DNA of 64,000 nt from a virus. Below the pieces are notes generated by a model, which ran no database searches, was not told where the DNA came from, and was given only the letters and a program-made list of their open reading frames with translations. Positions 11,876 through 49,577 of this stretch are shown here, in pieces. The position numbers and the translations under genes are program-made. The stretch is taken from the IMG/VR virus record IMGVR_UViG_3300029390_000003; one strand, 5' to 3'. Each line of letters begins with the position of its first letter. The first letter of the stretch is position 1.

Positions 11876-12727
11876 TTACTCACCCTTGGTAACGACTGTA
11901 TCTGCGCCCTGAACGGTGATCCAACCATGCTTCAGACGAGCTTCTGCTTCCTTCATCTGAATCAACTCAGGAGTGATAGACTCGGAAAGCACCTTATTCG
12001 CATCAGCCTCAGCCTGTGCTTCAATCATCTTAACATCAGCTTCCGTCTGTGCCTTAACCTTATCAGTCTCTGCCTGAGCTAGGGCGGTCTGCTTATTCAG
12101 CTCTGCAATCTCTGCGTCCTGCTTCGCCTGCTCCTTTGCGCGAATCTTCTGCATCAATGTATCGTCAGGCTGTGCGTCAACAATCAGTGCAGAAGAAACA
12201 TTGATACCATATTCTGCGGTCAGCTTCTCATTCAGATAATCGGTGATTGCAGTATTAACACCTGCACGATCATCAGAGTAAATCTGCATGACACTGAACT
12301 GAGGAGTGACTTCCTTAACATAAGCAATAATGTCGTTCTGGATTTTACTCTCCATCAGGCTCTCGCCGTCCATACCACCAAACTTGGTGTACAGTTCAAC
12401 AACATGTTCCGGCAGGAAGTTATAATTGACAGTCAGGTTGATTGCAATTGTACCGCCATTAGCAGGGGCATCGATATGCCAATCTGCGTGTTCCTTTGCG
12501 CCATAGTCGGACGGAGCATTAGAGAATACCACTCGCTGCTGAGTAATCGGGAACTCAGATACATGCTTCAGAGGACTCATAAAGTGCCAGCCCTGAGAAA
12601 TGGTCTGCTGCTCAACTCCCTTTGCGGAGTAAACAACACCAACATAACCAGTATGTACCCGCTCAGTACAAAGCACTGCACCAACTGCAACGAGGAATGC
12701 AACAAAAATTGCCATAAATTTCTTCAT
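11876..12727 (-). CDS. SPFH/band-7 (prohibitin/HflK-like) membrane protein.
   Basis: It has an N-terminal signal anchor and an SPFH core. The C-terminus is a coiled coil (KIRAKEQAKQDAEIAELNKQTALAQAETDKVKAQTEADVK). Confidence 0.7.
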   Translation of the reverse strand: MKKFMAIFVAFLVAVGAVLCTERVHTGYVGVVYSAKGVEQQTISQGWHFMSPLKHVSEFPITQQRVVFSNAPSDYGAKEHADWHIDAPANGGTIAINLTVNYNFLPEHVVELYTKFGGMDGESLMESKIQNDIIAYVKEVTPQFSVMQIYSDDRAGVNTAITDYLNEKLTAEYGINVSSALIVDAQPDDTLMQKIRAKEQAKQDAEIAELNKQTALAQAETDKVKAQTEADVKMIEAQAEADANKVLSESITPELIQMKEAEARLKHGWITVQGADTVVTKGE

Positions 12728-15405: not shown

Positions 15406-16182
15406 TTAATCTTCCAACCAACGATTTTCTGCCACATAGAAAGCTCCAACCGCAACTACCATCAATACGACCCAGAATACCCAAAACCAAATCACTCGTG
15501 TACCAGCTGCAGAAATCATATAATCTCGTGCTTCTTCGATGTTTTTATCCTTAATGAATTGTGCATCATGTATACTTTTATCGCTCAAATTCGCGTATAA
15601 TGTACCACCATAACGAACATCTTTGACATAAAACTCGAACTTTACATGAGAACTGACTTGTACAGTGGTCAGGTACTTGCTGGATGGCATTTTGATGTCA
15701 CCATACTTAAATTCTTTTCCCAGAAACGTTACATTTTTGGAACTGTGCTCTTCTGAGCTGTAATAGTCCCAAGTCCAGTACGTTTCGACTCTTGTTCTTG
15801 TATGGCCTTTACCATCCGTAGTAGTGACAGTTCGTGTATGCATCGTATAGTGCTTTTCTTCGCAATAGATGTACATCCACTGGCCGTCGATACGTGGATC
15901 GCTTACGGTATCTACTGCTTCTAGTGCGCCTTGGCAAAACGCATTACCTACGTTGGTTCTCATTCCATAATCGAACATATTTTCGGACTCAATCGAAATT
16001 GCTGTATTATATTCTTTTTTCTGCTCAAGTGAATCTCTGGTGATATTTCCAGCGATAACGCTACCAAGTATCAGCATAATGAACACAATACCAACACTGA
16101 CGATCAATTCACGATAAGTAATTTCGGCATTACCGATTTCCAAAAAGGTTACCGACTGCCGGTGCCGCCTCATTCCCCTCAT
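15406..16182 (-). CDS. Membrane protein, possibly a partner of LemA (TPM/DUF2207-like position).
   Basis: It has an N-terminal transmembrane helix and a C-terminal multi-helix hydrophobic block (VIWFWVFWVVLMVVAVGAFYV). It lies directly downstream of lemA. The start is uncertain. Confidence 0.35.
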   Translation of the reverse strand: MRGMRRHRQSVTFLEIGNAEITYRELIVSVGIVFIMLILGSVIAGNITRDSLEQKKEYNTAISIESENMFDYGMRTNVGNAFCQGALEAVDTVSDPRIDGQWMYIYCEEKHYTMHTRTVTTTDGKGHTRTRVETYWTWDYYSSEEHSSKNVTFLGKEFKYGDIKMPSSKYLTTVQVSSHVKFEFYVKDVRYGGTLYANLSDKSIHDAQFIKDKNIEEARDYMISAAGTRVIWFWVFWVVLMVVAVGAFYVAENRWLED

Positions 16183-16687
16183 AGGACAGATACTCATAAT
16201 TCTGAACCTCATATCCAGTCAGACCAAGCAGAAATGAGTTCGGAAACTTACGAACGCTCTGCTTATATTCCTTCACGACACGATTGTAATCGCCACGATA
16301 GTTTGCAATCAAATTTTCAGTGACGGATAGCTCATTCATAAGCTCCTTGTAGTTGTCGCTAGACTTCAGTTCAGGATATGCTTCCGCAATAGCTGCAATC
16401 TGAGTCGTAATCTCTTGAGCGGTCTGGCCGGAAGTGCCACGAGCATTCACAACATCCATCAAAGTCTGATACTCATGTTGGTCATAAGCCTTGACGGTTT
16501 CAACCAGATTTGGAATCAGATCAGCTCTGCGCTTCTCCTGATTCCCAATGCCAGACTTAGCTTCCTGAATCTGCTCTTCATAAGAGATGGCCGTGTTCTT
16601 AGGTCCCTGCACAATAAAGGTCATGCCAAGAATGGAAATTAACACGACACAAATAACGATAATAGGTAACTTCCAGTTGTATCTCAT
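16130..16687 (-). CDS. lemA: LemA-family membrane protein.
   Basis: It has an N-terminal transmembrane helix and the LemA pattern NQEKRRADLIPNLVETVKAY...VVNARG. Confidence 0.7.
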   Translation of the reverse strand: MRYNWKLPIIVICVVLISILGMTFIVQGPKNTAISYEEQIQEAKSGIGNQEKRRADLIPNLVETVKAYDQHEYQTLMDVVNARGTSGQTAQEITTQIAAIAEAYPELKSSDNYKELMNELSVTENLIANYRGDYNRVVKEYKQSVRKFPNSFLLGLTGYEVQNYEYLSYEGNEAAPAVGNLFGNR

Positions 16688-19955: not shown

Positions 19956-21269
19956 TTAGCCGTAGCTTACTTCGTTCTTATCATCTCGGAATCGCACAAA
20001 TGTCGGGAATTGCAGAGACTCAAGACCAGTCTTTTTGTCACAGCTCTTTTCCTTGAACTTTACTTCCACAATCTTACCGATGTAATTATCAGGATTTTCC
20101 CACACAGCAGCTCTCGTAGCGTCATCAAATCCAGAGCCTACTCGAAGCTCGTTGCCCTTGTAGTCAACAACAAGAGCGCCCATCGTACCAGCCAGACGGT
20201 TCTGACCTTCTTCAATCGCAGTGATTCGCAGATCGACCGTATAGAATCGTTTTACCTTCAAGCAACCATTGTGACGAGTGCGGCGATATGGAACCTGCCG
20301 GTTCACAACCAACCCTTCCCAATCGTGTTTAACCGCATAATCGAGCCAATCATATACATCATTCACATCAGTACCTTCGTAGACCATCTGGACCACTTCG
20401 ATATTCTGTGTGCCGTTCTTCTGGATCTTGTTTTTCAGATCGAGCAGCCGTTTCTTTCTTACTGAGTAATTCTCTGTGCAAGCATCCCTCTCAAATTCAT
20501 CAATCGGCACAATATCAAAGATGACAAATTTAATCAGGCTCTTGTCGTTGCCATCGCTATTCAAGATAGAGATTGTCTCGCGGAAGTTTTGCCCATCAGT
20601 TAATCCGTCGATATTCCGTCGAATCAGCTCGCCATCAACTGCGTAATCAGTGCCAATGATTTTTTCAATGTCCTTGATGATATAGTCAAGTCCCTCGAAC
20701 TTCTGTGCCTGGCGAGAGATTATATCGCCCTTAAAATATGTACCTCTCGATCCATTGAGTTTGCGCGAGGCAAAAATCAATTCACCTTTTCTGAATTTAT
20801 ATTTATCAATCGGGTATCCCTGCTGAACCTCCCAGACAGGAATTATCTCTTCGCCATATACCTTATTAATGGTAGCCGCCTCGACTCCAATTGGCAGGTT
20901 CTTAGTAAACAGTCGTTTCAGAAACTCTTCATATTCAGGATTTTTATGTAAATAATTCTGGATTGTTGCGATGGATGCGTCGGAGCCGGTGTTGTGACCA
21001 GCACCCATAATATAAAGGTATCCGCAGCTGAGATACTGAATGTCGATATCAGGCATTGCAGTTACCTTCTTATTGATTTTTGCATCAGACAGACCAGTAA
21101 TAATTGCCGGATCAAGCAGGAATCGAAAGAATGCCATCAACTCATCAGCTTCATCTCCAAAATCCTTACGTGCATCCAGCAAAATGCGGGTCTTGTCCGT
21201 CTTTTTCTTTGCTTTCTGCAATGCTTTAACCATCGCATCAAGCTTACCTATAAGCTCTTTATCTGTCAT
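19956..21269 (-). CDS. ATP-dependent DNA ligase (start at the internal MTDKELIG).
   Basis: The adenylation motif I is KLNGSRGTY (KxNGxR). The nucleotidyltransferase and OB-domain organisation is present. GGAGG lies 4 nt upstream of the ATG at 21269, and the 18-bp motif lies just upstream of that. Confidence 0.75.
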   Translation of the reverse strand: MTDKELIGKLDAMVKALQKAKKKTDKTRILLDARKDFGDEADELMAFFRFLLDPAIITGLSDAKINKKVTAMPDIDIQYLSCGYLYIMGAGHNTGSDASIATIQNYLHKNPEYEEFLKRLFTKNLPIGVEAATINKVYGEEIIPVWEVQQGYPIDKYKFRKGELIFASRKLNGSRGTYFKGDIISRQAQKFEGLDYIIKDIEKIIGTDYAVDGELIRRNIDGLTDGQNFRETISILNSDGNDKSLIKFVIFDIVPIDEFERDACTENYSVRKKRLLDLKNKIQKNGTQNIEVVQMVYEGTDVNDVYDWLDYAVKHDWEGLVVNRQVPYRRTRHNGCLKVKRFYTVDLRITAIEEGQNRLAGTMGALVVDYKGNELRVGSGFDDATRAAVWENPDNYIGKIVEVKFKEKSCDKKTGLESLQFPTFVRFRDDKNEVSYG

Positions 21270-21282
21270 AAAACCTCCTTGC

Positions 21283-21300
21283 GTATCCTGTGTTATATAG
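21283..21300 (-). promoter_or_regulatory. 18-bp conserved motif, copy a, 14 nt upstream of the ligase start.
   Basis: GTATCCTGTGTTATATAG on the + strand, CTATATAACACAGGATAC on the gene strand. It is followed by gcaAGGAGGttttATG. Confidence 0.6.
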
Positions 21301-21351
21301 TTGTAGCTAATAAAGAAAGGCTTGTCGTTACGAGCAAGCCATTTCTTTCCC

Positions 21352-21369
21352 GTATCCTGCATTATATAG
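21352..21369 (-). promoter_or_regulatory. 18-bp motif, copy b (left arm of the inverted pair).
   Basis: GTATCCTGCATTATATAG. Confidence 0.6.
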
Positions 21370-32868: not shown

Positions 32869-33633
32869 TTAATACTGAATTTTGTTGTTTGGATACAGTT
32901 CATTGAACATATCAAAAACTTTTCTCAGGCCAAGACCTTCCTTACTGGGCACCCAAATTTTCTTCGGGTTCCAATTCTTCCATACACCGTCGTATTCAGG
33001 TGCTATCGCATCATACGCAGGGTTATCCACCCACTGACCACCATTCATACTGTACTCGTACTTCTTAGGATCAAGTTCGGCAAGCGTCAAGAATCTGTTA
33101 TCATTTTTGTTGTGAGCTCCAAATCCGCAGAATGTGCATCCGGTGCGATCACATCCAGTACAACACAGTGGAGCTTCTGGCTTATCACTCGTGGGAACGA
33201 TATCGCCATAAACATCAGCGATTTGAATTCCTGACTGTTTGATGAAAGCGAGTACATCTTGCTCAGTCCAAAAACTCATAGGCTGACTAGACGGCGACTT
33301 GCTATCAAAGGCATTACACCCATGTCGAATCCACGCCTGTTTGCGAACACGGCTTTCATCTGTCAAAGTTCCAATAATTGGTTTCCGCTTAGTTGCCCTT
33401 GCGTACTTCTTCATTGGACTTTTCTTCATTACTGAGCAACAGTAATGAGAAATTGCGAATGGAAGTTCTTGTGTCGCTGGAAGCCATTTCTCTTTGTTGA
33501 ACATCGATTTCGTTCCAGCTTGCATTTCAGCTCCCGGTTCATTTCCAAGTAGAATCGTTCGTCTATTTCCCTGAAATACTCCTGTTTTATCATAAAGCCA
33601 CGGGTTGCTAAAGACACCTCCCGGACTGTTCAT
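32869..33633 (-). CDS. PAPS-reductase-family protein, C-terminal segment (out of frame with the N-terminal segment).
   Basis: GTLTDESRVRKQ (the RxES..R motif that follows a PP-loop) and the Cys cluster CCTGCDRTGCTFCGF are present. This frame is open all the way back to the (CT)n repeat. Confidence 0.65.
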   Translation of the reverse strand: MNSPGGVFSNPWLYDKTGVFQGNRRTILLGNEPGAEMQAGTKSMFNKEKWLPATQELPFAISHYCCSVMKKSPMKKYARATKRKPIIGTLTDESRVRKQAWIRHGCNAFDSKSPSSQPMSFWTEQDVLAFIKQSGIQIADVYGDIVPTSDKPEAPLCCTGCDRTGCTFCGFGAHNKNDNRFLTLAELDPKKYEYSMNGGQWVDNPAYDAIAPEYDGVWKNWNPKKIWVPSKEGLGLRKVFDMFNELYPNNKIQY

Positions 33634-33674: not shown

Positions 33675-34091
33675 TTAACTCTCTCTCTCTCTCTCTCTCA
33701 TGGTGGCTGCGCCGCTATTTCTGATTCGTCTAGCGTAATAAATCGCTTCTGCCACTTCTTTAGAGATAAGAGGATAACCATATGTAGAGACAACATCACT
33801 AAATCCCATCTTGGGATAAACAAAAACCGCATCCGCATCTCGTGCAAACTTCTGGATAGACGAGTATTCCAACCCCGTGTTACTGAACACAAGCGGAACA
33901 TCTGGAAACAGCTGTTTCGTCAGATGAGCAAGTACAGTAGAATCCTTACCACCAGAAAAACTGACATACACGCCACCGTCGTAGTGCATATACCATTCTT
34001 GGATGCGATTTTGAGTGATCTGAATCTTTCGCTCAAGAGGAAGTGCTTGAAGCTCCTTCAATCTTTGAGCGTCATGAACTGTATTATCCAT
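33675..34091 (-). CDS. PAPS-reductase-family protein, N-terminal PP-loop segment. It ends inside the (CT)10 repeat.
   Basis: VSFSGGKDSTVLAHL...VFSNTGLEY matches the PP-loop ATP-pyrophosphatase pattern of the PAPS reductase family. The ORF terminates as ...MRERERES* inside the dinucleotide repeat. Confidence 0.7.
   Translation of the reverse strand: MDNTVHDAQRLKELQALPLERKIQITQNRIQEWYMHYDGGVYVSFSGGKDSTVLAHLTKQLFPDVPLVFSNTGLEYSSIQKFARDADAVFVYPKMGFSDVVSTYGYPLISKEVAEAIYYARRIRNSGAATMRERERES
33679..33699. repeat. (CT)10 dinucleotide microsatellite inside the PAPS-reductase-like gene.
   Basis: ctctctctctctctctctctc on the + strand. It is read as RERERE in the N-terminal ORF. Confidence 0.95.
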
Positions 34092-38744: not shown

Positions 38745-40221
38745 TTATCCTCTTTGCTTTTCTGGAAAATGCTTCTTAGTTACTGCAACGCAAAAGCTAT
38801 CAATTTCTGACCCCCAAATGGCAGTACCTTCACCATATGTGCTTTGAAATACTAACGGAAAGCCGCCGATCCCATCGAAGAGGCTACCAAGAGTAGGATT
38901 CTCACCGATATACGGTTTCATCTTCTGAAAAATCCAATACCATTGCGGTAATGCGATTGAATTGCCGAGTGCCTTATAACGAACTGCGTCAGAAGTTTTA
39001 TGCTTCTTTTCGTTCTCATCAATCCAGTCACCGATATCTGTCCATCCATCAGGGAACCCCTGAAGCCGTTCATCCTCCAAAGGAGTCAAACGGCGAACAA
39101 TCCATCGTAGATTCTTCGTTTCTTTTTCTGTAATCAGGTCAGTAGCGTCCTTGTAATCACGAGATTTCATCGTACTAGCCTGTTCACTTTCCTTGTATTC
39201 ACCAATGCGTTGCATCGCAAAGGCTTTCTTCTCAATGACCAGTGGCATATTATTGCCACCAGTTCCCCACTGAGCAGTACAAGTCGGACTTGTATCACTC
39301 AGCTGAGTGTATCGAGCGTCTTGACTGTGGCTCTCAAACACCACCGGCGAAATCTTTTGTTTTAAATTATGTAAAGAGGGATTTTCTGCCAAGCAAATCA
39401 GCGTCTGGTCTTGTAACGTAGAAATCGTTGCGCTCAATTCAGTTTGAACCAGAGCGCCTTTACCGCCACCTTCACATCCAGAACGGATTTTTAGAGTGTA
39501 GGCTGCAGGTTCTGTGCATCGAGTCGAAGTCTCTCGATGGTCTGACTCCAATACTCGTCCAATTCCTTCTCTTCCAGACCTTCTTGTTCCTTCACTTTCT
39601 GCACCACCTGTGACAGAGTTCCTGGATTCCACCATTCGATCATATCCAGCAACGCTTGCTTCAGGAGTTCGGGCAAAGGTTTTCCACGCCGGGATGCTCT
39701 CACAAGAATCCCCTGACATGCTCGTGCGCTCAAATAGAATTTCTGAGGCACGTTGTCCTCCAAAATCCATGACAAGCGCGATTCTCTGGCGACGCTGGGC
39801 GACTCCCCAGTATTTAGCGTCGAACAATCTCCATGCAATAGACCATCCATTACCGGAAATCGCTCCAGATTTTGCCCACTTTCCGTTCTTCCCTGAAGGT
39901 CGAGGAATTGAAACGTCTGGCTCGACAATGCGTGCAAATCTTTCCAACACACATCTGAAGTCTTCACCTTTGCTTGAGCTGAAAGCTCCTCTGACATTTT
40001 CCCAGATTGCGAATTTTGGATATTCTCCATTAGTGGCCTCCCTCATTTCTGTAATCACACGAATCATTTCAAGGAACAATCCAGAGCGTTCACCAGCCAA
40101 ACCTTCACGTTTACCGGCCTGACTCAAATCTTGGCATGGACTGCCTCCTGTGATACAGGAAACCGGTTCAATCTGCCACCCATGAAGTTGTGTAATATCT
40201 CCGTAATGCTTCAGTTTTCAT
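38745..40221 (-). CDS. DNA (cytosine-5)-methyltransferase with circularly permuted motif order.
   Basis: From N to C the motifs run GGSPCQ (IV), ENV (VI), QRRQR (VIII), a roughly 200-aa variable region, RRLTPLEDERLQGFPDGWT and GNSIALP (IX/X), then FDGIGGF (I) and SEID (II) at the very C-terminus. The ATG at 40221 is 1 nt out of frame (A4 run). A CTG 8 nt downstream of AGGAGG is in frame. Confidence 0.75.
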
Positions 40222-40347: not shown

Positions 40348-40424
40348 CCTATCGGGCTGGTGGGACAGGAGAGATTCGAACTCCCGACCAAGCGGTTATG
40401 AGCCGCCAGCTCTGACCAACTGAG
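40348..40424 (-). tRNA. tRNA-Met (anticodon CAT); could be a lysidine-modified tRNA-Ile instead.
   Basis: The cloverleaf was folded by hand. The acceptor stem is GGGATAG/CTGTCCC, the D-stem GCTC/GAGC, the anticodon loop CTCATAA and the T-loop TTCGAAT. CCA is encoded. Confidence 0.8.
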
Positions 40425-40661
40425 CTACTATCCCATGCAAACGCCGACTTTCGTCGGCGCGATGCCAGCGGAGGAATCGAACCTCATCTCTCGGTGTTTC
40501 CGAGCGCTTTTACCATTAAGCTATCCAGCCGTATACCTCAGAATTTAATTCTCACTATCCAAGCTACGTCGCGTTCCAATATGATCACTCTTGGCAACCA
40601 TGTCGTAACATATAGGTTCCTTTCGGCTCTGAGTAACCGGTGCAGCGTAAGGGGCTGCGTG

Positions 40662-40737
40662 TGGAGCGACTGACGGGGGACGATCCCGCAACATTCAGAT
40701 TGGAAATCTGACGCTCTGCCAATTGAACTACAGTCGC
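40662..40737 (-). tRNA. tRNA-Gly (TCC).
   Basis: The acceptor stem is GCGACTG/CAGTCGC, the anticodon stem TCAGA/TCTGA and the loop TTTCCAA. The T-loop is atypical. CCA is encoded. Confidence 0.7.
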
Positions 40738-41094
40738 ATAAGAACCAACCTAGCAACTGGCATCACTAGGCTGGGATGCTCGGCTTGCAAAGGCACGCTG
40801 CACTCTTTCGAGCGAGCCGAGAATAACGTACATGGATAATTTCGTTAGCCCCTTTCTGGGTGGTATCTTGCACAGGCGCGGCCGGATCTGACCGCTAAAG
40901 ATCCTACCCATACAAGATTGGAGCAGCGAAAGGTAGTCGAAACCTCATCCTCAGCTTGGAAGGCTGATGTACTAGCCGTTGTACGACCGCTGCATGAAAA
41001 CCCAGCTTACAAAGCACTACTGCACCATCACTGGCGAGCTGGGAATAATAGTGGTCAAAGGAGTTCAACCATGAACAACAACGATTCATGACCG

Positions 41095-41176
<82 letters not shown>

Positions 41177-41181
41177 ATAAA

Positions 41182-41252
41182 TTGCGCCAACAGGGGTCGA
41201 ACCTGTGATGGAGGAGTCAAAGTCCTCTGCCTTACCGCTTGGCGATGGCGCA
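41182..41252 (-). tRNA. tRNA-Gln (TTG).
   Basis: It has a U1:A72 acceptor pair as in bacterial tRNA-Gln. The anticodon stem is GAGGA/TCCTC, the loop CTTTGAC, and the T-arm ACAGG-TTCGACC-CCTGT. Confidence 0.8.
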
Positions 41253-41320
41253 TCATATACCCAGCTTACTGGAGAAGCATCCTACTGCCTTACTGCTAAG
41301 GAGCTGGGAATAATAGGAAT

Positions 41321-41396
41321 TGGTCTGAGCGACAAGATTTGAACTTGCGGTCCCCTGTTCCCAAAACAGGTGCGATGCCAACTTCGCTACGCCCAG
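41321..41396 (-). tRNA. tRNA-Pro (TGG).
   Basis: It has a C1:G72 pair as in bacterial tRNA-Pro. The anticodon stem is CCTGT/ACAGG and the loop TTTGGGA. CCA is encoded. Confidence 0.8.
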
Positions 41397-41403
41397 ATAT
41401 AAA

Positions 41404-41486
41404 TGCGCCCGGCGGGACTTGAACCCGCACGCCATCTCTGGCAGAAGATCTTAAGTCTCCTGTGTCTGCGATTCCACCACGGGCGC
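41404..41486 (-). tRNA. tRNA-Leu (TAA), type II.
   Basis: The acceptor stem is GCGCCCG/CGGGCGC and the anticodon loop CTTAAGA. The variable arm forms a hairpin (GCC-AGAGAT-GGC). The T-arm is GCGGG-TTCAAGT-CCCGC. Confidence 0.75.
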
Positions 41487-41686
41487 ATATAAAAGAAGAT
41501 CAGAAACAGCCAACCATTCGTTTTACATTCTAGTTTTCTGGCGAACCGAAGAGTATTTATCCGATAGCTAGTCGGCTTACACCTTATTTCTCTTCTTGTC
41601 TGGCTTGACGTCCTTTACCGGTATGACGTCTTTCCGGTCGCCAATGTACGGCCAATCCCCGAACGAGCTAGAACAACTGATCTTCA

Positions 41687-41771
41687 TGGTAGGGATAATC
41701 GGATTTGAACCGATACGTCTTTCGACACTTGAGTTTGAATCAAGCGTGGCTGCCAATTTCACCATATCCCC
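41687..41771 (-). tRNA. tRNA-Leu (CAA), type II.
   Basis: The acceptor stem is GGGGATA/TATCCCT and the anticodon loop TTCAAAC. The variable arm forms a hairpin. The T-arm is ATCGG-TTCAAAT-CCGAT. CCA is encoded. Confidence 0.8.
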
Positions 41772-41888: not shown

Positions 41889-44108
41889 TTAGCTCTTCTG
41901 CTGACTTGCGTAGAACTCATTCCGCAGCTGAATAATACCCTTCTTGCAGAAAGACTCTTGATCTTTCTCTCGTTGTTCACGCATCCAACCATAGAACAGG
42001 TTATCCTCGGCAGTAAACAACTTTGCGGTATTTTCATAATAGCCACGTTTTTGAACGCTCTGCATGACACCACGCAAGAACTTCCAGTGCTTATAATACG
42101 GAAGCTTCAGCTTAAACATGAAATTATTGCTGTCTCGCAAAACAAAGCCTTCAACGTGTTCAAAACCATGATGCAGATAGTTCTCGTTCATGACTTCTTC
42201 GTACCAAGGATAGAATTCACTCCAGTTCTCAAAGGTTTTAACCTTCTCCTTAATCTGCAGATGACACTTCTCGGCTACACGCTTCAAATCATCATAATCC
42301 ATTACACTGAAATTCATATCATTTGCAATAATATCCAGCAAAACAATGTGCGGTTTCTTATATTCGATGATATGTGCATCATTCACAGGATCAATCACCT
42401 CGAAGATGATGGAGCCATTCTCTTTTGCAACTTCTTTCAGATTCTTACGATCTTCATCAGAAGTCGTATCCATGAGAATCTTTCGGAACATATCTGCAAA
42501 AGGCCCATCAGGAGTGGATTTACTTGCAATGAACAGACCATCCTGTTCTGCATCATACGAAATGATACCAAGAAATCCGTTCTCTTTTAGATATGCAGTC
42601 ACCGGGAACTTCAAAGTGTTCTGTAGGTTTCCAATTCTCGTTTCATTCCGCTCATCAACCGCAAAGAACTTATCATAGCTTCGAGCTACAATCTTATTCG
42701 TCTTTGTGTTAATGAACAACCCTCTTGCTTTGGTAGAAACCTCATCCCAGTGCTTCTTATAAAATGCTTCACGAGAGAAGTTGAAAGAAGAAATATCTCC
42801 GAATCGCTTCTCAAACACATATTTGCTTTGACGCATCTTACTAACAAGTTCTGCGTTATCGAACTCAGTTTTCATTTCAACGGCAGTTTCAGTCTTTGGC
42901 TCCTCTTTTCGGAATACATCATTCTTGGTTTCTACGCATTTGATAGGCTGACCGTGTTCAAGCTCCACACAACGAAGATATCCACCAAACTCGATTTTGC
43001 CTTCAAGATTGTAGCACCGATGACCCATATCAATAGGAACATCCTGTACATTTCGATGGCCGAAGATCTGAATATAGCTATCCGGCATCGACTTTTCCCA
43101 AGACTCAGCCACGGTCAGTATATCAGGATAGCGGCCTACGCCTTTAATCATCTGATCCGCAGACACGAACGGAAGAAAATAAGGAAGATAGCTCAGACCA
43201 CCGTGACTTACGAAATACCGCTTACCATCATACTCAAAGTAGACACACTGGCCGACTCTGGAATAGATCTTACGAGCAGTGTTCTTGTCAATACCGGCTT
43301 TAAAGAGCTGCGGACGAGTGTAGTTTGCAAACTCTTCACTTTGAACCGGTTTATCACGCCCCCACTTGTTCAGCCAATGCTCGTGGTTCCCTTCCAAAAG
43401 GATCACATTCTTGCGGTTGTTATTTACAACATCACACAAGAACTTGAATACCTCAACGTTTTCGATGCCACGATCGAGATAATCACCAACGAAGATATAA
43501 AGCTCGTCGTCCTTCATCTCACCAAGGTATTCACTCAAGCAGGTATAGCAGCCATGAATATCACCGATGATATGTATCTTTTTCCACTGGTTAAAGTCAT
43601 TCGGGCAGTAGTTCAAATCGGACATCACATCCGTAGTAGAAGGAAGAACTGTCACGCCAGAAGGAACTTTTTGAGTAGCAAACCGAGCGTACATCTTATC
43701 AATAGCCGCTTCAGGAACTCGCTTTAGCCATTCTCTCTGAGCGTTTCTTCGTTTGCATTCCTCGATCGGAAGGTCCGTCATATCAATAACATACATCCGA
43801 TAACGATACTGTTTTGCAAGATTCTTATAACAATTCATTTCGACCGTCTTGGAATTCGTTGCATCAATCACAGTAAACTCGCCATGGCTCATCCGCACCT
43901 CAAGCAGTTTGAAAAGCATCTCCCATACAACATCATCATTCTGCTGAGAAATCTCCATCTGCCCATCAGGTGTTTCCTGTGCGCTCTGGCACATAAGGCG
44001 AAGTGTATCAACACTCAATACGTACTGCTCAAGATTATGCTCTTTAATATAGGTGGACTTCCCGCAACCGGGTGCTCCACGGAACAGTAAAAGTGTTCTC
44101 ATCTGCAT
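41889..44108 (-). CDS. Pnkp-like RNA end-healing and sealing enzyme: P-loop polynucleotide kinase, calcineurin-type phosphatase, and a C-terminal nucleotidyltransferase (ligase-like) domain.
   Basis: The N-terminus has Walker A (FRGAPGCGKST). The middle has the binuclear phosphoesterase motifs IIGDIHGCY, GDYLDRG and GNHE. The C-terminal 350 aa carry a KxNG lysine motif (AYLKENGFLGII) like ligase/adenylyltransferase motif I. The domain order matches bacterial Pnkp. Confidence 0.7.
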   Translation of the reverse strand: MQMRTLLLFRGAPGCGKSTYIKEHNLEQYVLSVDTLRLMCQSAQETPDGQMEISQQNDDVVWEMLFKLLEVRMSHGEFTVIDATNSKTVEMNCYKNLAKQYRYRMYVIDMTDLPIEECKRRNAQREWLKRVPEAAIDKMYARFATQKVPSGVTVLPSTTDVMSDLNYCPNDFNQWKKIHIIGDIHGCYTCLSEYLGEMKDDELYIFVGDYLDRGIENVEVFKFLCDVVNNNRKNVILLEGNHEHWLNKWGRDKPVQSEEFANYTRPQLFKAGIDKNTARKIYSRVGQCVYFEYDGKRYFVSHGGLSYLPYFLPFVSADQMIKGVGRYPDILTVAESWEKSMPDSYIQIFGHRNVQDVPIDMGHRCYNLEGKIEFGGYLRCVELEHGQPIKCVETKNDVFRKEEPKTETAVEMKTEFDNAELVSKMRQSKYVFEKRFGDISSFNFSREAFYKKHWDEVSTKARGLFINTKTNKIVARSYDKFFAVDERNETRIGNLQNTLKFPVTAYLKENGFLGIISYDAEQDGLFIASKSTPDGPFADMFRKILMDTTSDEDRKNLKEVAKENGSIIFEVIDPVNDAHIIEYKKPHIVLLDIIANDMNFSVMDYDDLKRVAEKCHLQIKEKVKTFENWSEFYPWYEEVMNENYLHHGFEHVEGFVLRDSNNFMFKLKLPYYKHWKFLRGVMQSVQKRGYYENTAKLFTAEDNLFYGWMREQREKDQESFCKKGIIQLRNEFYASQQKS

Positions 44109-44152: not shown

Positions 44153-44180
44153 AAATGAAGGGGCCGAAGCCCCCTGTTTT
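44153..44180 (-). terminator. Bidirectional rho-independent terminator after the 44180..45106 gene.
   Basis: On the minus strand, the stop codon TAA is followed by aaaCAGGGGGCttcgGCCCCttcatttt. The + strand reads GGGGCcgaaGCCCCctgttttt. Confidence 0.7.
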
Positions 44181-45106
44181 TAATTTTCATGGAAATATTC
44201 AACCCAACCTTTATATCCTTGCCGGAAACTAAGATAGGCAACTTTACTGCACTTTCTTCCGATAATGTCCGCAAGAGGACCTTTACCATTTCCGAAACTA
44301 AGTTCTGCAAGATTAAATTTTGGATGAGTTTTACAGTAGTTATAAACCTTGATATACTCACAATTTCTGGCTAAATATCTTTGATCTAAGGTTTTTGAAT
44401 GATGCCTTTTTTCGAGGATATCGTTCAACCTCGAAAAATAGACATGAATTGAAATTATAGACGTCTTTGGATCACTGTTTACACCGGGTTTATCCTTCGT
44501 TTTGCGTAGGATATAATCGCCATTCATGACATAAAATGTTCTATAACCGCTCTTATTGGGGGCATCATACTGTTTCATCTCGTAACATTGCTTGATAATA
44601 TCCATTAACCTTGCGTCAACATCAGTCTTATCAAGAACGGTATTAGATTCAAAATCCACATCGTTAATTGTTAGATTAGAAATCTCATCGGAAGTAAGAC
44701 CAATCCAGTACAAAACAGCAATTACGTTCATACGAATCTGATATGGCTCTTCGTACTTATTTAAGAAGTCAACAAATTCGTCAACCGACGCAAAATAACT
44801 GTCATTGTACATATCATCTGCGCTTACATCGCTCTCTGAAAAGTCAGCCAGATCATACATGCTTGTTTCGTTTTCACTTTTGATGTAGCCTGTGATTATT
44901 GACTTCACATTTTTAAACGAACGACTCGAATTCACCCAATTATATTTGGCAAACATCTTTACGAAATCATCTTTTGTGAAGTCAAACAACTCATACCCAC
45001 GCTCGGCCTCGTAATCCATGACGTGACGCATCGTCGATGCAACAAACTCACCGCTTCTATCAGAATACTTTTCGGCAAAAGCTTTGATTTTTTCTTCAGT
45101 AAGCAT
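44180..45106 (-). CDS. Hypothetical protein.
   Basis: This 308-aa ORF has a clean stop followed by a terminator hairpin. No confident domain was found. Confidence 0.3.
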   Translation of the reverse strand: MLTEEKIKAFAEKYSDRSGEFVASTMRHVMDYEAERGYELFDFTKDDFVKMFAKYNWVNSSRSFKNVKSIITGYIKSENETSMYDLADFSESDVSADDMYNDSYFASVDEFVDFLNKYEEPYQIRMNVIAVLYWIGLTSDEISNLTINDVDFESNTVLDKTDVDARLMDIIKQCYEMKQYDAPNKSGYRTFYVMNGDYILRKTKDKPGVNSDPKTSIISIHVYFSRLNDILEKRHHSKTLDQRYLARNCEYIKVYNYCKTHPKFNLAELSFGNGKGPLADIIGRKCSKVAYLSFRQGYKGWVEYFHEN

Positions 45107-45670: not shown

Positions 45671-45997
45671 TTAGTGCCCGTACAACTCTGGATTCTCTGA
45701 TACGAACACGCTGGTGTTATCGAATATCATCTCATACGCTTTCTCTTTATCGCCCGGCCTAAACTCAACCCTCCTTACTTCGTGACATTCTTGCCGCAAC
45801 TCAATATGACTTTCGTTTCCAAAAAATCCAATGCCTTTGACAATCCCATGCGTCTCTACGCCAATGTCGTCCATCTTTTTGCAGATCATGTGAACATCCA
45901 CACCATTGCAAATAAAACAGACCCACACTCGCTTTTTTCTTATGTACTTCAAAAAGTTCTCAACCTGTATAACTCCCAAAACCTTTTTCTCACTCAT
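45671..45997 (-). CDS. Hypothetical protein.
   Basis: A 108-aa ORF upstream of the MazF-like gene. It does not resemble an AbrB/MazE swapped-hairpin fold. Confidence 0.3.
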   Translation of the reverse strand: MSEKKVLGVIQVENFLKYIRKKRVWVCFICNGVDVHMICKKMDDIGVETHGIVKGIGFFGNESHIELRQECHEVRRVEFRPGDKEKAYEMIFDNTSVFVSENPELYGH

Positions 45998-47525: not shown

Positions 47526-49058
47526 AGAATCACCTCTATTAGAACTTAGTTTTTATCAGATGTCTTTCCACCACTCGGAAATATCATCATCGTTAATTTC
47601 TTTCTTTGTTCCGACCTCACGAAAGCATTCGCAGATACTATCCCAAATTGCAATCACAAGATCACTACTTCTTTCAAGAGTATGCCCGAAGTAGTCCTTG
47701 TAATAAAGGTTAAGCATAAACGATTTTCCATTCATTCCATAAGTTGGAATTGGTTCATCAGCAACTTTAATCCACATACGGCCTCCTTAAATCTTAACTT
47801 TTATAAATCCGTTTATTCCATGCTTCGATAAGATCGGCTTTAATTTTTGCTTTTTCCATTTCAGAGGAATCAAAGTCGTAAGTTTTGCTTTCCATGATAA
47901 CATAGCAGTTGCACCTATTTTCTTTGTTTCCTCTCGTAACATACATCCATCGTGTTTGGCGATAACCGCCCTCTGCAATAGTAACTTCTCCACCGCAAAA
48001 TGGACACGGTTTCAAATTATCCATTTCGACCATTCCTTCCCTGTTTCATTTCCAGCCGCCCACTCTGATCATCGGCATCGGAAAGCGCTCCTAACAGACT
48101 AAGTGCGTACACGGCATCCAATACTATAAGTAAAATTATCATAATCCACATTATATTAACCTCACATTCTTTTGGCTTGACCATCTTGTATTGAGGTTGT
48201 CTCAAGCATACACCGCACAAAGAGATTATTCAACACAATTATCAAAATTACCAAAATTTTACTAATAATCCTACGTCATCAATAGTTATATCATCGGTCT
48301 GCACATCCTTTTGTTAAGTATCCACAAGAACCCGGATTTTATCAATTCTTGCATACTTTACATCATTAGCCATCAAACCCCATAATGGAAACTGTATGCT
48401 TTCCGTTATCATAACGAAAATAAAATCCGCCAAGAGTTTTGATGGTCTCTAATTTTGTCATGTATTCAGCAAGTTTTATTTCATACAAATCTCCAGAAAA
48501 GTGTTCTAACCCTTTCCATTGTTCATCAAGCTCATTCGTTAACTGTCTAATACCTTTGCATAACGCTTTGATTTTCTCGTCATTACTTTTCATCCATTGC
48601 ATCCTCAAGCTTTCCGTTGATGGAGTCGATTTCACGCATTAGCTTACAACGCCAATTACCATCTTTGTCAAGCCTAAAACACAGATTCTCATCATTACTC
48701 TTGTATCCCATGTAGCAGTAAGCCCTACACAAGCTTGTTGCATCAAGTGCGTCTTGTATAACTCGTGCTTCATTGAGAGTCAAATCAATCTTCATCTTGT
48801 TTCTCTCCAATCAAACTTCTGACCACAATCTCTGCAATAGTGATCATACCTACTTGTAATTACCGTATTGCATTTGGGACAGCGAAAACTTCCATGCTTC
48901 GGATCGACGACAACTATTTCACCCTCAATACGGCTGAAATAGTCATCAAGTACATCGCTCAAAATCATCTTCCCACGCCAGCCGAGGTCATTCTGCTGAA
49001 TATTCTTCGTGAGAATTCGATATGCGCTAATGATTTCACGCTTTGTGTATTTCATGTT

Positions 49059-49577
49059 TTACTCCTCTACAATATCCTGATTCACAGAATTCCATACCTC
49101 GGTCGAAGTGCTGTCATTCTCATCAGATAGGCGATCAATCCAAGCGTTCAACACTTCTCTATACACAGTCATATTCGGGCAAAAATGACTGTTGGTAAAT
49201 ACCGGCATATCGTCATTGCACAAGATTCTCATGATGGCAGCACACACAGCGGCAGATCTCGATACACCAGCAGCACAATTCACGCAGAACCAATCGGTTT
49301 TATCTGCTTCGTGATTATCCAGAACAAAATTCACGATATCCTTAGCCTGAATATCAGTGATACAGGTGCCTTCTAAATCAGTAGTGCAATCATCAAACTT
49401 CAGCGGGAGAAAAGTAATATTGCCCTCACACTTATGAAAATCAATATGATGACCATTAGCTTCAGTGATTGAGATAAACCGTATCCGTTCAAAATGTGGC
49501 TGTCGGATAAAGTCTTCTGCATCTTCTGCACTCATCACCGAGAATTTCCATTTTCTTCGATACATAGTAACAATCAT
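49059..49577 (-). CDS. Cys-based (dual-specificity / PTP-like) phosphatase.
   Basis: The P-loop VNCAAGVSRSAAV (CxxGxxRS) is present, and the general-acid Asp lies upstream. Confidence 0.55.
   Translation of the reverse strand: MIVTMYRRKWKFSVMSAEDAEDFIRQPHFERIRFISITEANGHHIDFHKCEGNITFLPLKFDDCTTDLEGTCITDIQAKDIVNFVLDNHEADKTDWFCVNCAAGVSRSAAVCAAIMRILCNDDMPVFTNSHFCPNMTVYREVLNAWIDRLSDENDSTSTEVWNSVNQDIVEE

Follow-up and report, generated by a model that had tools for sequence, protein, structure and literature searches.

The window analyzed here, a stretch of 64,000 nucleotides from the IMG/VR virus record IMGVR_UViG_3300029390_000003, is phage DNA of an SPbeta-like kind, with genes for ThyX, dUTPase, NrdG, a DNA ligase, a DHH/RecJ protein and integrases. 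Beside an array of tRNA genes it encodes a predicted RNA repair enzyme, a protein of 739 amino acids in the open reading frame (ORF) list, in which a P-loop polynucleotide kinase, a binuclear metallophosphoesterase, a disordered linker and an ATP-dependent RNA ligase follow one another from the N-terminus to the C-terminus (Table 1). This enzyme, its relatives and the repair reaction that it may carry out are the subject of this report.

Gene and domain layout of the enzyme

A preliminary description of the same DNA had picked out the ORF, a set of sequence motifs and the order of a kinase, a calcineurin-type phosphatase and a C-terminal domain with a KENG motif. All of these were located again, with GAPGCGKST at residues 11-19, GDIHG at 182-186, GDYLDRG at 208-214, GNHE at 240-243 and LKENGF at 507-512, and the domains identified with Pfam agree with that order. 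AAA_33 covers residues 6-144 (E 3e-22), Metallophos residues 177-355 (E 3e-15) and RNA_lig_T4_1 (PF09511) residues 460-672 (E 4e-41, 141.7 bits against a cut-off of 28.3), and all three lie far over the curated cut-offs. The gene had also been described as adjoining the tRNA array, and eight tRNA genes do begin 117 bp downstream of it on the same strand. Translation probably begins at the second ATG (M3, nucleotide 44102), which would give a protein of 737 amino acids, to judge from the ribosome-binding site AAAGGGAG 6 nucleotides upstream of that ATG, from the MRTLLL with which the homologues begin, which fits a start at M3, and from a 99% identical cluster representative that is itself 737 amino acids long.

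AlphaFold models of the whole enzyme and of its ligase domain, both built with alignments of relatives as input, reached a predicted local distance difference test (pLDDT) of 90.8, with a predicted template-modeling score of 0.77, for the former and a pLDDT of 91.5 for the latter. Residues 403-415 are the sole segment of the full-length model with a pLDDT below 50, and this disordered stretch is thus taken as the linker that joins the healing half of the protein to the ligase.

Table 1. Positions of the enzyme gene, its domains and the main neighboring genes in the window
Feature	Position	Strand	Basis or remark
Whole enzyme gene	41889..44108	-	ORF, three Pfam domains, PHROG 8238, full-length AlphaFold model, ribosome-binding site and start codon
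P-loop polynucleotide 5'-OH kinase domain, residues 1-165	43614..44108	-	AAA_33, Foldseek, TIGR04075 alignment, conservation
Binuclear metallophosphoesterase domain, residues 170-400	42909..43601	-	Metallophos, Foldseek, conserved motifs
Disordered linker, residues 403-415	42864..42902	-	pLDDT below 50
Ligase adenylyltransferase domain, residues 416-669	42102..42863	-	
All-helical C-terminal ligase domain, residues 670-739	41892..42101	-	Homologous to the Trl1-LIG C-domain
Eight tRNA genes: Leu-CAA, Leu-UAA, Pro-UGG, Gln-UUG, Leu-UAG, Gly-UCC (two), CAU	40358..41771	-	ARAGORN, Rfam
MrpR-like gene, tyrosine-recombinase fold	44180-45106	-	Between PemK and enzyme
PemK/MazF-like endoribonuclease toxin, 139 aa	45160..45579	-	Pfam PemK_toxin E 2e-19; PHROG 1936
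RlaP-family nucleotidyltransferase, 250 aa	46773..47525	-	Pfam PF10127 E 1.6e-18; PHROG 388 E 5e-44
Lar, counter-defense gene	47794-48033		
C5 DNA methylase, counter-defense gene	38745-40127	-	

The N-terminal domain carries a GxxGxGKS/T P-loop, a putative general base (D34) and the arginines R37 and R125. When the full model was compared with the Protein Data Bank (PDB) by Foldseek, this part matched the polynucleotide kinase of Clostridium thermocellum (CthPnk; 4gp6, 4gp7 and 4jst) with E values of about 1e-10 and template-modeling (TM) scores of 0.74-0.78. Since the best structural matches are polynucleotide kinases, the alternative of a deoxynucleoside monophosphate (dNMP) kinase, which had been named as one of two findings that would overturn the earlier assignment, is excluded, and the polynucleotide-kinase reading is kept. 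The middle domain has the signatures GD183xH185G, GD209xxD212R213G and GN241H242E together with H302 and H351, and its Foldseek matches were lambda phosphatase (1g5b, E 8.5e-9) and the phosphatase domain of C. thermocellum Pnkp (CthPnkp; 4j6o, E 2.4e-8); it is a putative 2',3'-cyclic phosphodiesterase and phosphomonoesterase. The kinase and phosphatase folds, their catalytic residues and the order kinase-metallophosphoesterase-ligase are those of the C. thermocellum Pnkp/Hen1 system. In T4 Pnkp, by contrast, the 3'-phosphatase is a DxDxT acylphosphatase of the HAD type and not a calcineurin-type metallophosphoesterase.

These residues were followed through 36 relatives with 35-61% identity to the enzyme. 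In the kinase, G16, K17, D34, R37 and R125 are nearly invariant (at least 90%), while in the phosphatase D183, D209, D212, R213, N241, H242, H302 and H351 are invariant and H185 nearly so. The histidine of the GDxHG motif (H185, at about 43554-43556 in the window) is replaced by glutamine in 3 of the 36 relatives and, giving GDLQG or GDIQG, in 26 of the 322 sequences of a larger alignment, in which those phosphatase and ligase-pocket positions that were checked again are likewise retained. Together with the ligase residues described below, the catalytic residues of all three domains are invariant or nearly so, which argues for selection on all three activities.

The ligase domain and its relatives

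The preliminary description had taken the KENG lysine as the sign of a C-terminal nucleotidyltransferase, and this holds: sequence and structure searches gave the full fold of a covalent nucleotidyltransferase ligase, with K508 of KENG as the invariant lysine of motif I. The key residues of the adenylyltransferase part are R462, K480 and F481, motif I (K508-E-N510-G), motif Ia (K530), motif III (E570), H579, motif IV (E653-G654) and motif V (K666 and K668), and those of the C-terminal domain are Y672, W675, K676 and R679 together with an IIxLR729xxF motif. Among the 36 relatives, R462, K480, F481, K508, N510, K530, E570, H579, E653, G654, K666, K668, Y672, W675, R679 and R729 are invariant and K676 is nearly so (at least 90%).

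In a sequence search of the PDB, the top match was the ligase domain of the tRNA ligase Trl1 (Trl1-LIG) from Candida glabrata (9qw7, E 3e-18), followed by that of Chaetomium (6n0v and 6n67, E about 1e-9 to 1e-10), and the alignments to Trl1-LIG span residues 436-733 of the enzyme; T4 Rnl1 was found with E about 1e-6. The structural matches of the ligase model fall in the same order. Chaetomium Trl1-LIG (6n0t) scored 30.4 with 315 aligned residues at a root-mean-square deviation of 2.5 A, C. glabrata Trl1-LIG (9qw7) 28.0 with 313 aligned, T4 Rnl1 (9do4) 24.8 with 247 aligned and archaeal ligases of the Rnl3 type 17-18 with 256-260 aligned, and far below them stood the Pnkp-C/Hen1-N ligase (4drf; 8.1, 193 aligned) and the Rnl of the Pnkp1/Rnl/Hen1 complex (4xrp; 6.3, 177 aligned). 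As the adenylyltransferase part has about 255 residues, a match of 315 must take in most of the helical C-domain of about 70 residues. The match to T4 Rnl1 is confined to the adenylyltransferase part, and the enzyme has neither a C-terminal tRNA-specificity domain of the T4 Rnl1 type nor the Hen1-activated C-terminal ligase of the Pnkp type (Rnl4). What it does have are two marks of Trl1-LIG, for which the name Rnl6 is in use, namely Rnl1-like adenylyltransferase motifs and an all-alpha C-terminal domain.

The kinship can be followed residue by residue. Both ligases have the adenylyltransferase fold with an Rnl1-like N-subdomain and motifs I (KENG), Ia, III, IV and V, and the motifs ARGLF, YDKFF, KENG, KxK (motif V), YxxW(K/R) and, in the C-domain, IIxLRNxF are common to both. 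K508, K530, E570, E653/G654 and K666/K668 of the enzyme align with K148, K169, E218, E300/G301 and K323/K325 of Trl1, and R462, K480 and F481 align with R99, K120 and F121, which contact ATP in the N-subdomain of Trl1. Counterparts of Trl1 N150, H227 and R337 are conserved in the enzyme family (R337 as lysine). The Trl1-LIG residues onto which the shared motifs map are listed as essential by Banerjee et al. (PMC6379707), who in their 2019 structure paper called the C-domain unique to fungal Trl1 and based the Rnl6 clade on it. In the literature searched, the clade is handled as one confined to fungi and plants.

The likeness extends to the whole protein, in that both fuse the ligase to a P-loop RNA kinase and to an enzyme that opens the cyclic phosphate, and it also has its limits. 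The order is ligase, kinase and cyclic phosphodiesterase in Trl1, whereas it is kinase, phosphatase and ligase in the phage enzyme; the 3' end is healed in Trl1 by a 2H cyclic phosphodiesterase and in the phage enzyme, which has no 2H domain, by the binuclear metallophosphoesterase. The equivalent of Trl1 R334 is not conserved in the enzyme family, the adenine-stacking His241 of Trl1 is a leucine in the enzyme, and Trl1 is eukaryotic while the enzyme belongs to phages and prophages. The wider interest of the family lies in the C-domain held to be fungal-specific, and in part of the phosphate pocket, both of which its ligase appears to share with Trl1.

A proposed repair pathway and its alternatives

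The cleavage of tRNA and rRNA is a widespread means by which bacteria abort phage infection, and to our knowledge the sole phage RNA repair pathway known in detail is that of T4 Pnkp and Rnl1. This pair, which repairs tRNA restricted by the anticodon nuclease PrrC, is among the closest known systems to the present enzyme. A fusion of such activities in one viral polypeptide was reportedly described by Martins and Shuman in 2004 for ORF86 of the baculovirus AcNPV, with an Rnl1-type RNA ligase, a 5'-kinase and a 3'-phosphatase, and that protein is said to differ from the phage enzyme in its order (ligase-kinase-phosphatase), its HAD-type phosphatase and its eukaryotic host. A survey of RNA repair systems by Burroughs and Aravind in 2016 likely covers the architecture seen here.

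The reading that we favor, at a probability of about three in four, is that the enzyme is a self-contained heal-and-seal RNA repair protein of a temperate SPbeta-like phage of about 135 kb that infects human-gut Firmicutes. The top structural matches of its three domains are RNA-repair enzymes: the kinase is closest to CthPnk, the middle domain to the CthPnkp phosphatase (alongside lambda phosphatase), and the ligase to Trl1-LIG and T4 Rnl1. The conservation of all three active sites, the RlaP gene nearby and the counter-defense genes Lar and C5 DNA methylase among the neighbors also speak for it. From the folds and the conserved residues we infer the three activities, their substrate, the sequence of reactions and the chemical nature of the junction, as follows. 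A ribotoxin of the host, either an anticodon nuclease or an RNase of the HEPN, PIN or MazF type, would cut RNA, most plausibly in a tRNA anticodon loop. The N-terminal P-loop kinase would phosphorylate the 5'-OH, and the central Mn/Ni-type binuclear phosphoesterase would open the cyclic phosphate and probably remove it, leaving a 2'-OH,3'-OH end. The C-terminal ligase, held on its flexible linker, would then be adenylylated at K508, pass the AMP to the 5'-phosphate and seal the break, and no Hen1-like activator would be required. A 3' end that is short of a nucleotide could be restored by the RlaP nucleotidyltransferase encoded nearby, and the adjoining tRNA genes could substitute for tRNAs that are beyond mending.

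Several points weigh against this reading. No biochemical work on a family member turned up in the literature searches, and as far as these show the family is uncharacterized. The proximity of enzyme and tRNA genes is loose beyond the close lineage, and the promoter-like sites found by a scan at the enzyme gene are within chance level. The kinase of CthPnk acts on DNA ends too. Finally, H579, N510, K676 and R679, all essentially invariant, sit at the positions that form the 2'-phosphate (sulfate) pocket in Trl1.

The last of these points bears on the nature of the sealed junction. Wild-type CthPnkp strips the cyclic phosphate fully and heals tRNA halves into ends that T4 Rnl1 can seal, while its H189D mutant leaves a 2'-phosphate that can be sealed by yeast Trl1 only (PMC1920235). 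H185 of the enzyme corresponds to H189 of CthPnkp, and the equivalents of CthPnkp R237 and H264 (R213 and H242) are also kept. On the ligase side, the 2'-phosphate specificity of Trl1-LIG rests on H227, R334 and R337 (PMC11404444), and the preference depends most on R334, although plant Trl1 lacks both arginines and still requires the 2'-phosphate (bioRxiv 10.1101/2024.06.06.597711). The enzyme reads His-Lys-Lys where CthTrl1 has the triad His-Arg-Arg. In the alignment of 322 sequences, H579 (the H227 equivalent) is invariant, N510 and R679 are each kept in 320, and K676 (the R337 equivalent) is lysine in all but three, which have arginine; position 673, the equivalent of R334, is asparagine in 174, lysine in 68 (the window enzyme among them) and arginine in only 19. 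Such variability at position 673 fits ordinary 2'-OH ends, and conventional sealing of 2'-OH,3'-OH ends appears the more likely from the sequences, even if the plant Trl1 case leaves the logic of these residues weak in either direction.

The alternative is a Trl1-like chemistry, in which the phosphoesterase would stop at a 2'-phosphate,3'-OH end, or the ligase would capture that intermediate, with the result that the sealed junction keeps the 2'-phosphate. The mark would block a second cleavage by ribotoxins that depend on the 2'-OH, in the manner of the 2'-O-methyl group of Hen1, and would be taken off later, if at all, by a 2'-phosphotransferase. What speaks for it is that the ligase is nearest to Trl1-LIG in sequence and fold, C-domain included; that N510, H579 and K676 align with the three Trl1 residues (N150, H227 and R337) that bind a sulfate mimicking the 2'-phosphate, with R679 as a further invariant basic residue one helical turn off; that the window enzyme has a lysine at the R334-equivalent position; and that about 8% of the relatives have glutamine for the GDxHG histidine, the residue whose change to aspartate in CthPnkp gives a 2'-phosphate product. 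By analogy, these natural variants may heal ends differently. Set against this, the R334-equivalent residue is asparagine or otherwise non-basic in most relatives, and the window enzyme itself retains H185, R213 and H242 as in the wild type. A co-variation between the change of the GDxHG histidine to glutamine and a basic residue at position 673 was looked for in the 322 sequences and is absent, the 26 variants not being enriched for one. Neither KptA/Tpt1 nor a 2H phosphoesterase, nor for that matter Hen1, was found when the larger window ORFs, concatenated and singly, were scanned with Pfam, a scan that covers less than half of the phage genome. On balance, a Trl1-like junction is unlikely.

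The same judgment extends to a broader proposal, namely that the enzyme family is the prokaryotic-virus counterpart, and possibly the evolutionary source, of the Trl1 ligase domain and seals 2'-phosphate ends into junctions immune to a second cleavage. Were it true, the "unique" fungal C-domain would be a shared one and the junction mark would be a functional analog of Hen1 methylation, yet in this strong form the proposal is doubtful. Its weaker version, a ligase fold common to Trl1 combined with conventional chemistry, is already supported by the comparisons above.

A further rival to the reading of a stand-alone defense against host ribotoxins comes from the gene for a PemK/MazF-like toxin that lies two genes upstream of the enzyme gene. 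Enzyme and toxin could form a pair, in which the toxin cuts RNAs of the host or of phages, for shut-off or to let the lysogen exclude other phages, and the enzyme reverses the damage for the phage. The ends left by MazF are of the type that the enzyme should be able to heal, and the cuts made by MazF in the 16S rRNA of E. coli are reported to be reversed by RtcB. All 71 close relatives, as well as one 53% identical lineage, keep PemK, the MrpR-like gene and the enzyme in this order, and of 19 lineages of enzyme loci, defined at 70% identity, 5 have PemK no farther than 8-10 kb from the enzyme gene. However, those five lineages are all large phages and prophages of gut Clostridia, so shared ancestry can account for the synteny. 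MazF-like genes are also common in Lachnospiraceae phages without the enzyme, no PemK is found near the enzyme gene in phages of Staphylococcus, Bacillus, Alicyclobacillus and Lactobacillus, and a terminator-like hairpin (44175-44159) between the MrpR-like gene and the enzyme gene parts the latter from the genes upstream. A co-occurrence of MazF and the enzyme in the same genomes of Lactobacillus phages was considered as well and is absent, as MazF is found in Maenadvirus of about 80 kb and the enzyme in myophages of about 140 kb. A dedicated pairing with PemK is thus improbable. Upstream of the toxin gene lies an ORF of 108 amino acids (45671-45997, minus strand) that is a candidate antitoxin by position and has no family or PHROG match; as a conserved antitoxin it was rejected, being unrelated to the ORF at the same position in the 53% identical lineage, which is likewise without a PHROG match.

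It is very unlikely that the enzyme acts on DNA ends or nucleotides and not on RNA, for example in the repair of nicked phage DNA. Polynucleotide kinases of this sort accept DNA 5'-OH ends as well and metallophosphoesterases are promiscuous in their substrates, but the phage has an ATP-dependent DNA ligase of its own, encoded elsewhere in the window (19956-21362), the nearest relatives of the ligase domain are all RNA ligases, and the enzyme gene is associated with RlaP and tRNA genes.

That the protein is a bona fide bacterial-type Pnkp dependent on a Hen1 methyltransferase partner can be rejected, for although its kinase-phosphatase half aligns with the NCBIfam model of bacterial Pnkp, TIGR04075 (E 5e-23), and the domain order is that of Pnkp, the score is 81.2 bits against a cut-off of 750, the alignment covers residues 5-305 only, the ligase is structurally far from the Pnkp/Hen1 ligases, and no Hen1 was found among the neighboring genes, the window ORFs scanned with Pfam or the related loci. 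Because the alignment stops before the ligase, the label "Pnkp-like" used in the preliminary description is right for the healing half, with its CthPnkp-like folds and domain order, and wrong for the ligase. Its remark that no Hen1 partner is visible nearby stands, and an autonomous ligase of the Rnl1/Trl1-LIG type would explain that absence.

Distribution of the family and genomic surroundings

The enzyme matches PHROG 8238 ("RNA ligase") with E 1.7e-226, residues 3-737 aligning with profile positions 1-734 of 737. Searches with tblastn found relatives in 143 deposited phage records, 113 of them covering at least 80% of the enzyme length, and the identity to any deposited phage is at most 44%. 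Among the carriers are the Twort-like and Sep1-like myophages of Staphylococcus (Twort ORF008 is annotated as "RNA ligase"), Brochothrix phage A9 (gp147), the SPbeta-like Bacillus phages Goe11 and SPbetaL2-L8, the Lactobacillus phages Lb338-1 and Iacchus, Fusobacterium phage Fnu1 and Alicyclobacillus phage KKP_3916. The PHROG 8238 members Twort ORF008, A9 gp147 and the Goe11 homolog belong to the same family over their full length, with 37-44% identity over 99% of the length, and the window enzyme is a diverged member from a gut-Firmicute phage lineage with no difference in kind.

Beyond the deposited phages, a large protein database gave more than 4,600 matches at E 1e-10 or below, of which the best 120 have the three Pfam domains and about 720-790 amino acids, save for five of 420-545 amino acids. 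The ligase domain alone gave 645 clusters at 50% identity (E 1e-30 or below), and the 150 of these that were listed are mostly proteins of 680-800 amino acids with the ligase at the C-terminus. In the species-representative genomes of bacteria and archaea, relatives are encoded at 456 loci, and the best 80 of these, presumed to be prophages, are mainly from Lachnospiraceae and other gut Clostridia. Copies with 88-100% identity occur on IMG/VR viral contigs of 125-139 kb, and one cluster of 99% identical proteins has 2,003 member sequences. No close relative was found in a single-protein scan of species-representative bacterial genomes, and the 14-kb neighborhood gave only short tRNA or fragment matches when compared with deposited phages by megablast. 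With a distribution this wide, the earlier view of such enzymes as uncommon beyond the T4-like phages is mistaken; the family is large and already annotated, and the gene in the window is an ordinary member of it.

This means that many phages of Gram-positive and gut bacteria, such as the Twort-related Staphylococcus phages and the relatives of SPbeta, carry an all-in-one alternative to the T4 pathway, in which healing domains of the bacterial Pnkp type are paired with a ligase that, among solved structures, is nearest to the tRNA-splicing ligases of fungi. Its characterization would provide a second model of how phages escape defenses that target RNA and would test whether the "fungal-specific" C-domain and phosphate pocket predate eukaryotes, a question that bears on Trl1 as an antifungal target.

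Several Staphylococcus phage records divide the gene into two pieces annotated as "RNA ligase", and on some metagenome contigs near-identical copies of the enzyme are called as fragments of 420-545 amino acids; introns or homing elements, frameshifts or assembly breaks could lie behind such calls.

With regard to the neighboring genes, all nine of the close relatives that were sampled retain the tRNA array, and 7 of the 11 diverged loci examined have tRNA genes no more than 10 kb from the enzyme gene. The array tRNAs are possible substrates of the enzyme or back-ups. In a gap of the array (40463-40529, minus strand) Rfam gives a ninth tRNA-like match, a weak one of 30.0 bits against a gathering threshold of 29, which ARAGORN does not call. 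The RlaP gene lies 2.7 kb upstream of the enzyme gene and is present in 24 of the 71 close relatives and near the enzyme gene in 5 of the 19 lineages. RlaP extends damaged 3' ends of RNA by one or two nucleotides and has been proposed to counter ribotoxins that take off a nucleotide after cleavage (PMC12776372), and here it is likely an accessory partner that restores nucleotides lost from the 3' end. At one related locus (L083), RlaP is directly downstream of the enzyme gene, at about 12279.

The phage background is that of SPbeta in the related loci as well, which contain the SPbeta genes YorF and YorH. Two genes of the window, Lar and a C5 DNA methylase, belong to counter-defense. The methylase ORF has a TTG start and two separate Pfam stretches and overlaps an ORF of 179 amino acids in another frame (39491-40030, minus strand), and it may be frameshifted, interrupted or mis-started. 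At 49059-49577 (minus strand) there is a gene for a small cysteine-based CX5R protein that resembles a dual-specificity phosphatase (a weak match to Pfam DSPc, E 4e-4; PHROG 5614) and is conserved at the corresponding position in the lineage of loci L004-L006; a role as an RNA-end phosphatase is conceivable. Genes for SPFH/Band-7 and LemA proteins are found at 11876-12727 and 16130-16687, respectively, both on the minus strand. The L004-L006 lineage has a Band-7 gene of 67% identity (10560-11459 in L004) downstream of the enzyme gene, with one small ORF between them. A role as scaffolds in RNA repair systems has been suggested for SPFH modules. Lastly, two adjoining ORFs on the minus strand (32869-33633 and 33675-34091) each match part of a PAPS-reductase domain and may be either the pieces of one split gene or the genes for two subunits of an enzyme that modifies DNA.

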